A stretch of DNA of 64,000 nt from Candidatus Berkelbacteria bacterium. Lineage in GTDB: Bacteria; Patescibacteriota; UBA1384; XYA2-FULL-43-10; 1-14-0-10-43-13. Every line of letters starts with the position of its first letter. Position 1 is the stretch's first letter. The translations under genes were made by a program, and so were the position numbers. This document shows, piece after piece, positions 2,837-32,046 of the stretch. Below the pieces are notes generated by a model that saw only the letters and a program-made list of their open reading frames with translations, did no database searches and was not told where the DNA came from. The stretch spans positions 1,132-65,131 of the forward strand of contig JBAWZC010000001.1 in assembly GCA_037143235.1 (NCBI GenBank), given 5' to 3'.

Positions 2837-2866
2837 TGTCATTCCGGACCACGATCCGGAATCTAT
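2837..2866. repeat. Solo palindromic element of the TGTCAT family (tgtcattccggaccacgatccggaatctat).
   Basis: TGTCAT terminus followed by an 8-bp stem (attccgga/tccggaat) and a ctat tail, as in the inverted repeats flanking the GIY-YIG genes. Confidence 0.55.
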
Positions 2867-13151: not shown

Positions 13152-13530
13152 TGTCATTGCGAGCTATTGGGTTTTCCAAAGCGCGGCAATCTATCATGCT
13201 CTACCATGAAAAACTATTACACCTACATTTTATCTAACTATGATAATTCTGTTCTGTATATTGGGATTACCAATAATTTAGTTCGTAGAACACACGAGCA
13301 CAAAAACAATTTAATCGAGAGTTTTTCATCCAAATACAAAGTCCACAAATTAGTTTATTTCGAGGAAACCAATGACGCAAACTCTGCAATTTCACGAGAA
13401 AGACAATTGAAAGCTGGTAGCAGACAGAAAAAACTCGATTTAATAGCAAAAAACAATCCTGAATTTAATGATTTGTATCCAGAACTATTATAATGATAGA
13501 TTGCCGCGTCGCAGACTCCTCGCAATGACA
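13152..13530. mobile_element. Palindrome-flanked GIY-YIG cassette, divergent family member: 45-bp left IR, GIY-YIG gene, 37-bp right IR
   Basis: Left IR 13152-13196 tgtcattgcgagctattgggttttccaaagcgcggcaatctatca and right IR 13494-13530 tgatagattgccgcgtcgcagactcctcgcaatgaca. The terminal 12-14 nt are exact reverse complements (tgtcattgcgag/ctcgcaatgaca; gcggcaatctatca/tgatagattgccgc). Confidence 0.7.
13206..13493 (+). CDS. GIY-YIG nuclease family protein (small URI-domain/YhbQ-like, 95 aa)
   Basis: YTYILSNYDNSVLYIGITNNLVRRTHEHK matches the GIY...YIG motif with the conserved Arg and Glu. The ORF occupies the interval between the two IRs almost exactly; the TTG track start lies inside the left IR. 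Confidence 0.75.
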   Translation: MKNYYTYILSNYDNSVLYIGITNNLVRRTHEHKNNLIESFSSKYKVHKLVYFEETNDANSAISRERQLKAGSRQKKLDLIAKNNPEFNDLYPELL

Positions 13531-13563: not shown

Positions 13564-13688
13564 TGTCATTGCGAGCTATTGGGTTTTCCAAAGCGTGGCA
13601 ATCTATCATATCCTTTTTTTACTATTGCGGCCCAACCACGGTATCAAAGCACGATAGATTGCCGCGTCGCAGACTCCTCGCAATGACA
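13564..13688. repeat. Empty miniature copy of the same element (MITE-like): left IR and right IR separated by only 44 bp
   Basis: 13564-13608 is near-identical to the left IR at 13152 (one mismatch) and 13653-13688 is identical to the right IR at 13494. No ORF lies between them. Confidence 0.7.
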
Positions 13689-13937: not shown

Positions 13938-15524
<1,587 letters not shown>

Positions 15525-21321: not shown

Positions 21322-21678
21322 TGTCATTCCCGCGCAGGCGGGAATCCACCAATAGCCACCTCCTAATTTTTATTCAAGTAAGTCTTTCCACCCAGGATTG
21401 CTTTGCTCAATCAACTTTATTTTCCAAACCCTATTCCACTTTTTAAGACGCTTTTCTCTAAGAATTGCCTCAGTCACATCAGATGTTTCTTCGAAGTAAA
21501 CAAGTTTTTTGGCTCCATATTTTTCAGAAAAACCGTTTGTAATTTTATCTTTATGCTCATTCGTTCGCTTCTCTAAATTTGATGTCACCCCCACATACAA
21601 TGTTCCATTCAAACGACTTGCCAATATGTATACAAAGTATTTTTTCATTTGTGGATTCCCGCCTGCGCGGGAATGACA
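21322..21678. mobile_element. Palindrome-flanked GIY-YIG cassette: 28-bp perfect IRs (tgtcattcccgcgcaggcgggaatccac at 21322-21349; reverse complement at 21651-21678)
   Basis: The IRs are exact reverse complements and each is itself a hairpin (ttcccgcg/cgcgggaa). The GIY-YIG ORF fills the space between them. Confidence 0.75.
21370..21648 (-). CDS. GIY-YIG nuclease family protein (92 aa)
   Basis: YFVYILASRLNGTLYVGVTSNLEKRTNEHK GIY-YIG motif; about 80% identical to the copy at 28464-28742 and about 45% to that at 13206-13493. Confidence 0.75.
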   Translation of the reverse strand: MKKYFVYILASRLNGTLYVGVTSNLEKRTNEHKDKITNGFSEKYGAKKLVYFEETSDVTEAILREKRLKKWNRVWKIKLIEQSNPGWKDLLE

Positions 21679-21702: not shown

Positions 21703-22515
21703 TTAGGAATTCTGTAGCAGTTTAATCCTCTCTTCAACAACTTTTCCCACTGCATCCATGCCCTCTTTATTTGCATCACGATAATCTTCATCACTCGAAG
21801 ATTCAATCGCTTCAGCAAAAGCATGTTTCAATTTCGTATCAACATTGAACTTTGTAACACCACAACCTATTGCTGCGCGAATATCTTCATCGCACAATCC
21901 AGACGAGCCATGCATGACGAGTGGAATACTCACTTTTTCTGATATTAATTTCAGTAATTTTAAATCAACTTTTTCACCCTCTGGCGCGCCATGCTCATTA
22001 CCTACAGAGACAGCTACTGAATCAACGCCAGTCAGTTCAACAAATTTAGCAACTTGATCTGGATCACTCATCACCGCCGTACCCGAGATTTGACCACCTT
22101 CCTCTTTGCCGATAACCCCAATCTCGGCCTCGACGGTAACGCCTCTTTCGTGAGCATATTCGACGACCTTTTTAGTCTCAGCAACGTTTTCATCAAAAGA
22201 TAATTTTGAACCATCGAACATGACTGACTTATAACCCATGTCGATACATCTTTTGACTGTTTCAAAATCCTTAGCATGATCAAGATGAATCGCCGCATTG
22301 ATTCCAGAACTATCGATTTCATCTCTAATAATATCAAATAGCGTTTGTGGCCCAGCATACTCCAAAGCGCTCGGTGTCGTTTGAATCAGGATAGTCGCAT
22401 CCAATTTCTTAGCCGCGCTACAAATTGCTTTCGTCACCTCAAGATTATTGGTATTGAAAGCCCCGATAGCACATCTGGTTTCGCGGGCTTTATTTAATTC
22501 TTCTTTTACATTCAT
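21703..22515 (-). CDS. fba: Fructose-bisphosphate aldolase, class II
   Basis: Class II FBA/tagatose-bisphosphate aldolase motifs (AIGAFN, LHLDHA, HGSSG). Start set at ATG 22515 (AAGGAAAA SD). The track's 5' extension is translation of a solo TGTCAT-family repeat. Confidence 0.9.
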   Translation of the reverse strand: MNVKEELNKARETRCAIGAFNTNNLEVTKAICSAAKKLDATILIQTTPSALEYAGPQTLFDIIRDEIDSSGINAAIHLDHAKDFETVKRCIDMGYKSVMFDGSKLSFDENVAETKKVVEYAHERGVTVEAEIGVIGKEEGGQISGTAVMSDPDQVAKFVELTGVDSVAVSVGNEHGAPEGEKVDLKLLKLISEKVSIPLVMHGSSGLCDEDIRAAIGCGVTKFNVDTKLKHAFAEAIESSSDEDYRDANKEGMDAVGKVVEERIKLLQNS

Positions 22516-22524
22516 ATTTTCCTT

Positions 22525-22570
22525 TGTCATTGCGAGCACTGAACTTATCGAAGGGTGCGGCAAGGTATCA
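22525..22570. repeat. Solo TGTCAT-family element (tgtcattgcgagcactgaacttatcgaagggtgcggcaaggtatca) just upstream of fba
   Basis: Same termini (tgtcattgcgag...gcggcaa..tatca) as the left IR of the 13152 cassette. Confidence 0.55.
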
Positions 22571-22572
22571 TA

Positions 22573-23160: not shown

Positions 23161-24003
23161 TTATTTATCGTCCAATAATATATTATCCTGTTTGGCAACA
23201 AATTTATACTTACTGACTACCAGTCTGCCGGTTTTTGACTCTATTTCTTTTCTGGCATGACCGGCAATAGTCCCGCCTTCCTTTGCCACTTGACGGTTTT
23301 CTGGTAAGTCTTTGGGCTTACGCTTCTCTGATATTTCTGTGGTCGCTGTTTCAGCCAACATATTCAAGACCAATTCCAGATTGGTCATATTGTCGCGTAA
23401 ATTTTCTTTTTTCAGATTTTTATAATTCTTGTATTCTCGTGTACCCATTCCCGCCCAAGCCAGAGTGATATCGTCAGTTAAAATGGCAAATTCATCGCCC
23501 CTTTTCACGCCGCGTTTTTCCCATTCATCGGTCAGGGCCTTTCGGATTTCAATACTTTTTAGTCGTTGATTTATCCAGCTCTCGCTGTAACCTTTTTTCA
23601 GATATGTATTTAACGCTCGGTTGATCGCTAGCTCCGGATCATGGGTCTCTTCGATCCGCTCGTATCCAACTCGTGCCAACCAGAGCTTAAAAGGCTCGGC
23701 ATTTGGCGAAGGAACCGATTGAATCAAGCGAAGTAATACTTCTGTATCAGCGACATCAGTTAGGCGCATCTTGCCATCCATAGCAAACATCTTCAAACCG
23801 TGACAATTTGTCACGGTTTCATTCCCGCCCTCTTTCTTCATCCTCTCTTTTAGCTTTCTCCAATACGCAAGAGGATCGACACTTCTCGTCAATGCCGCGA
23901 CCACATCAACAACCGAAAAATACCACTTTTCCTCTTTCTCGTCCCAGTGGCGACGAATTTTATTACCTTCAAAAATTGCAATCTTTTTAACTTTTTTACT
24001 CAT
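23161..24003 (-). CDS. DinD-like DNA-damage-inducible protein (N-terminal BRO-N/KilA-N-like domain)
   Basis: The N-terminus (KIRRHWDEKEEKWYFSVVDVVAALT) resembles BRO-N. The C-terminal half (FAILTDDITLAWAGMG...KNLKKENLRDNMTNLELVLNMLAETATTEI) parallels E. coli DinD (FAIFQNHGYQGLYGG...KGLKKNQKILDHMGSTELAANLFRATQTEE). Confidence 0.6.
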   Translation of the reverse strand: MSKKVKKIAIFEGNKIRRHWDEKEEKWYFSVVDVVAALTRSVDPLAYWRKLKERMKKEGGNETVTNCHGLKMFAMDGKMRLTDVADTEVLLRLIQSVPSPNAEPFKLWLARVGYERIEETHDPELAINRALNTYLKKGYSESWINQRLKSIEIRKALTDEWEKRGVKRGDEFAILTDDITLAWAGMGTREYKNYKNLKKENLRDNMTNLELVLNMLAETATTEISEKRKPKDLPENRQVAKEGGTIAGHARKEIESKTGRLVVSKYKFVAKQDNILLDDK

Positions 24004-28339: not shown

Positions 28340-28418
28340 ATTTACCTCCATCAGTTAATTTTCATTGATGGACTATCTGCCATCACCCAATTTACTTTGT
28401 CATTCCCGCACCCTTATT

Positions 28419-28773
28419 TGTCATTCCCGCGCAGGCGGGAATCCACAAAAAGTCAACTCATAATCATTCAGTCAAATCTTTCCATCCAGGATTATTTTCT
28501 TCAATCAATCTTATTTTCCAAATTCTATTCCATTTTTTAAGACGTTTTTCTCGAAGTGATGCCTCGTGAATATCTGTCGTTTCTTCAAAATAGACAAGTT
28601 TGCTTACTCCGTATTTCTCAGAAAAACCATCAGCGATTTTATCTCGGTGTTCGGTTGTCCGTTTCTCTAAATTTGATGTTACTCCGGTATACAATGTTCC
28701 GTTGAAATGGCTCGCCAGTATGTAAACATAATATTTTTTCATTTTGTGGATTCCCGCCTGCGCGGGAATGACA
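28419..28773. mobile_element. Palindrome-flanked GIY-YIG cassette with the same 28-bp IRs as the 21322 copy (28419-28446 and 28746-28773), plus an adjacent partial IR at 28398-28413
   Basis: IRs are identical to those of the 21322-21678 element. Inserted between gap and tpiA. Confidence 0.75.
28464..28742 (-). CDS. GIY-YIG nuclease family protein (92 aa)
   Basis: YYVYILASHFNGTLYTGVTSNLEKRTTEHR; paralog of the 21370-21648 gene. Confidence 0.75.
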   Translation of the reverse strand: MKKYYVYILASHFNGTLYTGVTSNLEKRTTEHRDKIADGFSEKYGVSKLVYFEETTDIHEASLREKRLKKWNRIWKIRLIEENNPGWKDLTE

Positions 28774-28783
28774 GAAATCTCAT

Positions 28784-30615: not shown

Positions 30616-32046
30616 TTAATCAAAAAGATCCTTTACCTGTTTTTTTCGATGATAGGATATAGCAAAACGATGCGCCTCATCCCTTGCTCGTATCAAGACT
30701 CTTTGCAATGTTTGGTTTGTTTTAATAAATACCGCAATTTTATCATCAGAAAATCGCAAATCATTTCTTTTTCTCTCGGCGCCCTTTGCAATTGCCACCA
30801 CGGGGATGTCTTTGCCAAGCTCCGTAAGCAATAACTTCACAATATTCAACTGCGATTGTCCCCCGTCCAAAACGATCAAATCAGGCAGTGGCCAATCATT
30901 TTTCATTCTTCGCTCAATCACATCTCTCATCCAATAAATATCACCTACTCGCTTGTCATCCCCAGATTCACTATTTTTTGTCATCCCCGATCCAGTCGGG
31001 GATCCATTAATAGCTTTCCCCACTTCACTAAAGTTACGAGGGGCAGGGTGGATTCCCGCCTCCGCGGGAATGACAGAAACGGGAAACTGTTTTCCGTTTT
31101 CTGTTTTCTGTAAACTAAACATCCGATAATCGTCCTTGCTTGCTTTTCCGTCTACAAAAACGACCATCGAACCAACGACATTTTTTCCAGATATATTCGA
31201 AATATCATAACACTCGATTCTCTTGAAGCCAGCGACTGATTGATCGACCAATTCATCCGACAAGCCCACCCCCACATCTCGAAGGTGCTGTAGCGCTCTG
31301 ATCTTGTCCCGAACCAACGCTGCCTCCTCGTATTTTGATTTGGCACTTAGTTTCGCCATCTCCTTTTCAAGGTCGGCAAAAAGCTTCTGTTTTTTGTTTT
31401 GCAAATATTTGACCAAATAGCCAATGTTCTTCTGGTAATCTTTTTCGTCAGTAAAATCGGCGCAAGGCGCACTACAAACTCGGATCTCGCCGAAGATACA
31501 TGGCCTTTTTTGCCTTTGCTGAGACGCAAACTTTGTCTTGGAACAGTCACGATATGGAAAGATCTTGCGTAGATATCTCAAAGCATTTTTCAGCAAATCG
31601 CCTGAAGGATAAGGGCCAAAATATATCGCCGATCGATCAGAAAAATCCACATTTCTCGATCGTACCAGTTCAACCATCGAGAACGATCCAGCTCGGTCAA
31701 CTTGAGATTTAGAATTTAAAATTCTACGAGTTATCTTTATCACCAAAAAGCTTTTGTCGTCCTTGGCTCTGATATTATATTTCGGCTTAATCTTGTTGAT
31801 CAGCTCTGCCTCGAGCAAAATTGCTTCAATCTCAGAATCAGTCTCAACGGTCACGACCTTGTCGGCTAGCTCCACCATCTGAATGATGCCAACCCCTCTG
31901 TCTAGTGTACTCAAAAAATATTGACGGATGCGATTGCGCAAGTTCTTTGCTTTGCCGATATACAAAATCTTCCCTTTGACATCCAGAAACTTATAGACGC
32001 CAGGAGAACTTGAGATTCCACTAAAATTTATCGAACTTTTATTCAT
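30616..32046 (-). CDS. uvrC: Excinuclease ABC subunit C (UvrC), short form ending right after RDEAHRFAISYHRKK (no C-terminal (HhH)2 domain), with an in-frame insertion of about 50 aa
   Basis: N-terminal GIY-YIG (GVYKFLD...ILYIGKAKNLRNRIRQYF), a Cys cluster, UVR domain, RNase-H-like ECYDISN...YRMF and DIYWMRDVIERR...LIVLDGGQSQL...RDEAHRFA. The TGTCAT-family hairpin plus heptamer repeats at 30943-31095 are translated in-frame (…IPAEAGIHPAPRNF…). Confidence 0.8.
   Translation of the reverse strand: MNKSSINFSGISSSPGVYKFLDVKGKILYIGKAKNLRNRIRQYFLSTLDRGVGIIQMVELADKVVTVETDSEIEAILLEAELINKIKPKYNIRAKDDKSFLVIKITRRILNSKSQVDRAGSFSMVELVRSRNVDFSDRSAIYFGPYPSGDLLKNALRYLRKIFPYRDCSKTKFASQQRQKRPCIFGEIRVCSAPCADFTDEKDYQKNIGYLVKYLQNKKQKLFADLEKEMAKLSAKSKYEEAALVRDKIRALQHLRDVGVGLSDELVDQSVAGFKRIECYDISNISGKNVVGSMVVFVDGKASKDDYRMFSLQKTENGKQFPVSVIPAEAGIHPAPRNFSEVGKAINGSPTGSGMTKNSESGDDKRVGDIYWMRDVIERRMKNDWPLPDLIVLDGGQSQLNIVKLLLTELGKDIPVVAIAKGAERKRNDLRFSDDKIAVFIKTNQTLQRVLIRARDEAHRFAISYHRKKQVKDLFD
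30943..31095. repeat. TGTCAT-family palindromic elements plus a (CTGTTTT)n heptamer repeat embedded in-frame in uvrC
   Basis: Contains cttgtcatccccagattcac, ttgtcatccccgatccagtcggggatcca (stem ccccga/tcgggg), gtggattcccgcctccgcgggaatgaca (the 28-bp IR with one substitution) and ctgttttccgttttctgttttctg. Confidence 0.65.

Follow-up and report, generated by a model that had tools for sequence, protein, structure and literature searches.

The closest described relatives of the locus reported here are the Ssn nucleases and the hairpins at which they cut. Chenal et al. (Nat Commun 2025, PMC11893778) described Ssn as a family of single-domain GIY-YIG proteins of about 94 residues that cut only single-stranded DNA (ssDNA), at tagged hairpins. 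SsnA of Neisseria meningitidis (94 residues, CDD cd10448) binds the hairpin of the Neisseria Transformation Sequence (NTS; consensus CGTCATTCCCGCGMAVGCGGGAATCYRG) in ssDNA only and cuts one strand a few nucleotides upstream of it; it cleaves neither duplex DNA nor RNA and does not bind RNA, and strand-specific cleavage of ssDNA 5' of the hairpin has been shown experimentally for four homologs (PMC11893778). At least one such repeat, termed an Ssn-related motif (SRM), lies near 71% of Ssn homologs, and SRMs lie on both sides of 42% (PMC11893778). The same authors likened the NTS-ssnA-NTS arrangement to an insertion sequence, to IS200/IS605 and to the REP/BIME and REP/RAYT systems, and proposed domestication; a mobile element was raised as a hypothesis and movement was not demonstrated (PMC11893778). 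We found no later demonstration of Ssn-SRM movement in the literature. Here we analyse a stretch of 64,000 nucleotides from a Candidatus Berkelbacteria bacterium (contig JBAWZC010000001.1, positions 1,132 to 65,131), a member of the Candidate Phyla Radiation (CPR); this whole stretch is called the window, and positions are counted from its first letter. It carries three small GIY-YIG genes, ssn-1 to ssn-3, each enclosed by inverted repeats (units 1 to 3). We conclude that each unit is, with high probability, an Ssn-SRM module, that is, an endonuclease of about 92 residues together with its cognate flanking SRM hairpins.

Membership of the Ssn family

The three proteins belong to the Ssn family. 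Pfam recognises the GIY-YIG domain in all three open reading frames (E 8e-16 to 9e-14, residues 3-76), and at 92, 92 and 95 residues, with no extra DNA-binding domain, they have the single-domain size of Ssn; NCBI names the window protein 'GIY-YIG nuclease family protein'. Against the gonococcal SsnA ortholog, the ssn-1 product is identical at 43 of 85 positions (51%) in a gapless BLASTP alignment (E 8e-33) and the ssn-3 product at 39 of 90 (43%, BLASTP). The published threshold for an Ssn homolog is a tblastn E<1e-10 (PMC11893778); applied to the N. gonorrhoeae ortholog, ssn-1 gave E 2e-22, with a single match in each of two chromosomes (2.17 Mb) that are filed as plasmids in PLSDB. Mutation has shown the catalytic residues Y6, Y17, and E64 of meningococcal SsnA to be essential (PMC11893778); they align with Y7, Y18, and E65, at which the three paralogs and 29 homologs show no variation. 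An earlier note on this DNA, made from the sequence alone, had allowed for an inactive protein lacking the catalytic Arg and Glu; the GIY, YIG, Arg, His, and Glu positions are in fact conserved in all three paralogs.

The AlphaFold2 model of ssn-1 is one compact domain (pLDDT 85.8) and confirms the GIY-YIG fold that the note had expected. Its best match among solved structures is the UPF0213 protein BH0048 (PDB 1ZG2, 94 residues, Foldseek E 3.9e-4), followed by Slx1 and then the N-terminal domain of UvrC. No sequence relative was found in the PDB at E<0.01, and no Ssn structure is among the PDB entries searched. The PADLOC defence-system models returned 0 families for all three proteins, neither Y1_Tnp (the HUH transposase) nor any other transposase family matched them, and cultured phages gave a single weak match. 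In one gonococcal strain (L087, NZ_CP119142.1 1881119-1882573), the ssnA reading frame (VYILAS...) lies at +1 relative to the nearest ATG, so that the gene may be frameshifted there or may start elsewhere.

Repeats and selection in units 1 and 2

A scan of the window places the 28-nucleotide sequence TGTCATTCCCGCGCAGGCGGGAATCCAC on one side of ssn-1 and its exact reverse complement on the other (Table 1), and an identical pair encloses ssn-2, both as the earlier note had described; no match is expected by chance (100 shuffles). A further copy, with one mismatch, lies at 31048-31075(-). Unit 1 has almost nothing to spare: 2 nucleotides separate the ATG from the right repeat and 20 separate the stop codon from the left one. 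As ssDNA, the 28-mer is predicted to form an 8-bp stem (ATTCCCGC/GCGGGAAT) closed by a GCAG loop (-8.9 kcal/mol, z -3.65). It departs from the 28-position NTS consensus at no more than the two outermost bases (26/28 identical). The published degenerate SRM pattern matches exactly the four repeat copies of units 1 and 2, where 0.12 matches are expected (100 dinucleotide shuffles); both flanks of these two units thus carry SRMs, and unit 3 is unmatched. The gonococcal ssnA locus is likewise surrounded by NTS copies, one of which is identical to the window repeat over 25 consecutive nucleotides.

Table 1. Genes and repeats of the Ssn-SRM type in the window
Feature	Position	Strand	Basis or remark
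Solo tagged hairpin TGTCATTCCGGAccacgaTCCGGAATC	2837..2866	+	
Type-B repeat, unit 3 left arm, TGTCATTGCGAG..CGCGGCAATCTATCAT	13152..13197	+	published SRM pattern not matched
ssn-3, divergent paralog of 95 residues	13206..13493	+	50% identical to ssn-1, 43% to gonococcal SsnA ortholog
Type-B repeat, unit 3 right arm	13493..13530	-	ends as in left arm, central segment different
Geneless type-B doublet	13564..13688	.	left-type arm 13564-13609(+), 41-nucleotide spacer, right-type arm 13651-13688(-)
SRM/NTS-type hairpin, unit 1 left repeat (3' side of ssn-1)	21322..21349	+	TGTCAT tag outward; exact match, SRM pattern, fold
ssn-1, single-domain GIY-YIG nuclease of 92 residues, Ssn family member	21370..21648	-	open reading frame, Pfam, identity to SsnA ortholog, AlphaFold2 model
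SRM/NTS-type hairpin, unit 1 right repeat (upstream of ssn-1)	21651..21678	-	exact reverse complement of 21322-21349; SRM pattern
Solo type-B-like repeat, 5' end of fba	22525..22571	+	
Half copy (tag and left arm, TGTCATTCCCGC)	28398..28409	+	21 nucleotides outside unit 2 left repeat
SRM hairpin, unit 2 left repeat	28419..28446	+	exact match, SRM pattern
ssn-2, paralog of ssn-1, 92 residues	28464..28742	-	79% amino acid and 76.7% nucleotide identity to ssn-1
SRM hairpin, unit 2 right repeat	28746..28773	-	exact match, SRM pattern
Inward-facing SRM doublet in uvrC	30979..31075	.	30979-31007(+) and 31048-31075(-), read in frame

The repeats of units 1 and 2 are identical at all 56 positions and the open reading frames at 76.7%; third codon positions agree at 58% and the first two at 86%, and 13 of 22 four-fold sites are identical. 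Outside the repeats, the flanks agree at random level (14/40 and 10/40). The codon-position pattern, the 56/56 repeat identity, and the random-level flanks show that both the protein and the repeats are under selection. The two units are old duplicates and not recent transpositions.

The three units lie between pfkB and fba, between gap and tpiA, and between a Mur ligase gene and the 16S rRNA gene, in substance the gaps between glycolytic or core genes of which the note had spoken. No promoter-like or terminator-like site was scored inside unit 1, and all ssn genes run in the same direction as their neighbours (fba to pfkB, tpiA to gap, and the Mur ligase gene). Unlike pfkB and tpiA, ssn-1 and ssn-2 have no GGAGG Shine-Dalgarno sequence, the sole purine-rich stretch being inside the hairpin. 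From the missing promoter, the shared orientation, and the missing GGAGG, we suggest that the genes are probably expressed by read-through from the host operons, and at a low level.

Association of hairpin and gene in other loci

A metagenome scan with an alignment of homologs gave 80 loci from hosts of 30-68% GC, with proteins 55-67% identical to ssn-1. By the published pattern, an SRM lies within 150 nucleotides of ssn in 43 of 68 loci and its orientation is biased, with 19 forward against 1 reverse upstream of the gene and 35 reverse against 4 forward downstream. A lenient detector of tag plus hairpin finds inward-facing tagged hairpins on both sides in 51 of 72 independent loci (71%) and on at least one side in 66/72 (92%), the opposite orientation being seen in 10/76 upstream and 21/78 downstream flanks. 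The same hairpin-gene-hairpin arrangement occurs in two high-GC viral contigs.

The constant parts of these hairpins are the tag TGTCAT (97/130) and the tail TCCAG (70/130). Stems show two-sided changes that retain pairing (for example ATTCCTGC/GCAGGAAT and ATTCCCGT/ACGGGAAT), in a set whose extraction itself demanded stem complementarity. The two flanking hairpins are identical in 7 of 54 loci. In the earlier note, nuclease and repeat were said to co-vary; the window does hold two classes of each, but across 64-66 other loci of this clade they are only weakly correlated (upstream, Mantel r 0.18, p 0.014; downstream, r 0.11, p 0.07), and strong co-variation was rejected.

Unit 3 and other copies in the window

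The arms of unit 3 (13152-13530) have 12 nucleotides in common at the 5' end and 16 at the 3' end, with unlike middles, and for the right arm no stable fold is predicted (-2.6 kcal/mol, z +1.05). This repeat pair differs from that of units 1 and 2, as the earlier note had it; the differing arm centres and the right arm's lack of a stable predicted fold are a correction to that note. These type-B repeats keep the TGTCAT tag and an AATC tail, yet miss the published SRM pattern. Each arm of the geneless doublet nearby is one nucleotide off the corresponding arm of unit 3; the doublet is reminiscent of a REPIN or MITE and seems to have arisen from the adjoining unit by deletion. Unit 3 and the doublet lie about 250-800 nucleotides past the 3' end of the 16S rRNA gene, which is complete (13939-15524(-)) and is not accompanied by a 23S rRNA gene within the 64-kb window.

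Viral contigs of IMG/VR abound in the type-B outline, TGTCATTGCGAG-N(8-30)-GGCAATC: at least 170 matches lie in 120 stretches, with differing inner stem-loops, and a number of them stand in tandem arrays (L110, L124). As a marker linked to ssn, the repeat was rejected, since 1 of 170 copies lies within 150 nucleotides of an ssn-like open reading frame, among the matches listed. Viewed from the repeat side, type-B copies are mostly solo. The longest fba open reading frame (21703-22563(-)) begins within the solo type-B-like repeat, which, when read backwards, gives the N-terminal peptide (...SVLAMT...); as the Pfam match starts at residue 18, the true start is probably an ATG further downstream. 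Just past fba lies a gene (23161-24003(-)) for a protein of 280 residues with a BRO-N domain (Pfam E 4e-9), which is often found in proteins of phages and viruses.

Several copies escaped the earlier note: the doublets at 13564-13688 and 30979-31075, two solo hairpins (2837, 22525), and two half copies (28398, 30954). These additional copies have the outline TGTCAT-stem-loop-stem-ATC in common and differ in their stems. The doublet at 30979-31075 lies in uvrC (30616-32046(-), 476 residues), which is translated in frame across it (insert about 30950-31080, peptide ...SVIPAEAGIHPAPRNFSEVGKAINGSPTGSGMTKNS...). In an alignment of 120 CPR UvrC homologs, of which the first 60 rows were examined, about half have no insert at this site and the others have up to about 60 residues at the same spot. 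The inserts of two of these genes (L089, 3994-4137; L090, 4000-4170) are tagged doublets too, with different stems. This suggests either a hotspot of repeated insertion or a loop that tolerates inserts. Rickettsia palindromic elements are likewise palindromic repeats that lie in frame within protein-coding genes; the uvrC doublet is like them in this in-frame insertion and differs in repeat family and host.

Half-hairpins, consisting of the tag and the left arm, recur with a period of about 19-25 nucleotides on the outer side of full hairpins, at 28398-28409 and 30954-30965 in the window and at L021:2290-2383 and about 660-760 of L035, two further loci in which they form arrays of GGGAATGACA units. 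The zone they occupy coincides with that in which Ssn is reported to cut. They could be footprints of repair or slippage, or arrays like NIME or BIME.

Discussion

The core of the earlier proposal, a minimal GIY-YIG nuclease with cognate hairpins flanking its own gene, is borne out by this locus and has been shown experimentally for homologs (PMC11893778). From these characterised homologs, we infer the chemistry and geometry of cleavage in Berkelbacteria. Where DNA becomes single-stranded, in uptake, replication or repair, the repeat would extrude as a hairpin. Ssn would bind the stem together with the C that directly follows it on the 3' side, read the GTC of the tag on the 5' side, and hydrolyse this strand a few nucleotides beyond the tag in the 5' direction, leaving duplex DNA, RNA, and the complementary strand uncut. 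Because both tags face outward, each strand is predicted to be cut once, immediately beyond the end of the unit. The likeliest role would be to restrict or trim SRM-bearing ssDNA that enters the cell or arises in replication, as in Neisseria, while the hairpins, and now and then the gene, spread slowly as selfish DNA.

Four points weigh against assigning the units to Ssn-SRM modules in this way. The position and strand of cleavage are carried over from homologs that are 43-51% identical. The role in natural transformation that applies in Neisseria cannot be assumed for a CPR bacterium. The pairing of ssn-3 with the type-B repeats is only presumed, since these miss the SRM pattern and one arm is unfolded in prediction. 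Finally, three paralogs in 64 kb and the geneless doublets are more suggestive of an element that proliferates than of one housekeeping nuclease.

This last point leads to the alternative of an autonomous mobile element, the reading of the earlier note, in which cleavage by Ssn at the hairpins drives the copying of units and geneless doublets to other sites. It fits the same biochemistry as the Ssn-SRM module and differs from it in biology alone; we regard it as rather unlikely. The homology between units 1 and 2 ends sharply at the outer ends of the repeats, three ssn paralogs stand within 64 kb, the doublet beside unit 3 retains the left/right asymmetry of that unit's arms, tagged doublets lie in frame in uvrC of several lineages, and near-identical hairpins accompany proteins that are 55-67% identical across hosts of 30-68% GC. 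The units of the metagenomic loci L021 (1780-2383) and L035 (150-760) are 92% identical in nucleotide sequence, with homology from the TGTCAT tag onward and unrelated upstream flanks, but this comparison covers one side of the units. A compensatory pair of changes sets their upstream hairpins apart (CCCGCG..GCGGG against CCCACG..GTGGG). The gap between tpiA and gap (28352-28783 in the window) has no ssn in three relatives with uvrC-(cofD)-tpiA-gap synteny: L003 (13422-13814) has a 23S_rRNA_IVP (PF05635) gene there, L089 (5355-5925) two unrelated small open reading frames of unassigned kind, and L090 (6778-6930) a 153-nucleotide spacer with geneless tagged hairpins. These comparisons are at the level of genus or family synteny, the nearest UvrC relatives being about 50% identical (in a set of 5.8 billion proteins); a search of genome contigs with Fba gave a sole match, to Cetobacterium, at 38% identity.

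Sharp boundaries, geneless doublets, and relatives without ssn in the slot thus give circumstantial support for spread, although other observations argue against an autonomous element. GIY-YIG enzymes hydrolyse DNA and, to our knowledge, form no covalent strand-transfer intermediate of the kind found in HUH transposases. No target-site duplications were seen on reading the flanks of the units, and there is no sign of recent movement, because units 1 and 2 are old duplicates; on these grounds, the description of the locus as mobilised by its GIY-YIG protein does not hold as stated. The two predicted cuts would be on opposite strands, unlike those of IS200/IS605, and flanking hairpins are seldom identical (7/54). 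As inverted repeats are present with no direct repeat seen at the boundary and no transposase family matched, the units do not qualify as an insertion sequence or MITE. A more specific version, in which SRM-ssn-SRM of CPR bacteria is a truly mobile element driven by an ssDNA nuclease, seems unlikely to us: a nick outside the tag would be followed by repair or template switching that copies units and doublets to new sites, among them the recurrent, insertion-tolerant position in the essential repair gene uvrC, and the half-hairpin tandem copies outside full hairpins would be footprints of this copying. If true, a mechanism akin to transposition would here depend on a hydrolytic GIY-YIG nuclease in place of a transposase.

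The remaining explanations are much less probable. Should the hairpins be RNA or transcriptional elements of the glycolytic operons (terminators, mRNA stabilisers or RNase III sites) and the gene an unrelated housekeeping nuclease of the UPF0213/YhbQ type, the location of the units inside co-directional operons, the ability of the two 28-mers to pair within one transcript, and the fold match to 1ZG2 would all be explained. We nevertheless consider this very improbable: no terminator-like site was scored and no T run follows the hairpins on the transcribed strand, no Rfam family matches them, the protein is homologous in sequence to SsnA and not to UPF0213, and SsnA does not bind RNA (PMC11893778). 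The tag, moreover, is orientation-specific, conserved across phyla, and biased in its direction with respect to the gene, in keeping with a site that a protein recognises. Still less credible is a free-standing homing endonuclease that cuts a duplex empty allele, with incidental repeats. Weak NCBIfam and PHROG matches to group I intron and homing endonucleases do cover the catalytic core, but that to TIGR01453 reaches 25.8 bits against a cut-off of 56 and spans the first 50 profile positions only; the protein is a single domain of 92 residues with no DNA-binding domain, the genes sit in host operons with no intron or intein context, and the orientation bias in the metagenomic loci speaks against incidental repeats. 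Characterised homologs, too, leave duplex DNA uncut (PMC11893778). Least credible of all is an operon architecture conserved once per genome in all relatives and showing no element-like behaviour, which the earlier note had set against its own proposal. All copies do lie in conserved core-gene clusters; even so, the tpiA-gap slot is otherwise filled in the three relatives and the window itself has three copies, an outcome in favour of the note.

Comparison with known systems

The earlier note took the locus for an undescribed kind of bacterial element. As nucleases of this minimal GIY-YIG kind and their cognate flanking hairpins were already described in 2025, and the likeness of NTS-ssnA-NTS to IS200 and RAYT-REP systems is already in the Discussion of that paper (PMC11893778), the locus opens no new category. 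Its value is that of a clean, compact case from a reduced CPR genome in which two distinct nuclease/repeat classes are adjacent. The features of note are the three paralogs, the two repeat classes, the perfect pairs abutting the start codon, the geneless doublets, and the hairpin doublets in coding sequence. We suggest that the locus is a convenient system for asking whether Ssn-SRM modules move or persist as domesticated ssDNA processing, and it supplies new enzyme/site pairs for the ssDNA tools proposed in PMC11893778.

With the Ssn/NTS system of Neisseria, the units share the GIY-YIG family of about 92-94 residues, the catalytic residues, a nearly identical hairpin (26/28), and the hairpin-gene-hairpin order with outward tags. 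They differ in that the host is a CPR bacterium (Berkelbacteria) and not a proteobacterium, three paralogs occur in 64 kb against a single match per gonococcal chromosome, the 28-nucleotide pair is perfect and abuts the start codon, and a second repeat class (type B) is not covered by the published SRM pattern. Translation also runs through a doublet within uvrC, whereas the Neisseria NTS is rarely intragenic (2%). The Neisseria repeat dRS3 (ATTCCC-N8-GGGAAT), of the dRS3/NIME elements, is the palindromic core of the same hairpin and forms clustered intergenic arrays; its definition includes neither an orientation tag nor an enzyme, and the literature treats it as specific to Neisseria.

The REP/REPIN-RAYT systems likewise have a small gene between inverted tagged hairpins, solo and doublet copies elsewhere, and recognition of the hairpin in ssDNA. 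Their enzyme is a covalent HUH tyrosine transposase (Y1, related to IS200/IS605), whereas that of the window units is a hydrolytic GIY-YIG nuclease of unrelated fold; there is one gene copy there and several here, and the likeness is one of architecture alone. Among other GIY-YIG proteins, those of UPF0213/YhbQ (BH0048, 1ZG2) are also stand-alone and of about 90-100 residues, but form a separate family (23% identity), and we know of no association of theirs with flanking hairpins. Homing endonucleases of the I-TevI type have the catalytic domain and links to selfish elements in common with ssn; unlike ssn, they have separate DNA-binding domains, cut duplex DNA, and are encoded in introns or as free-standing phage genes.

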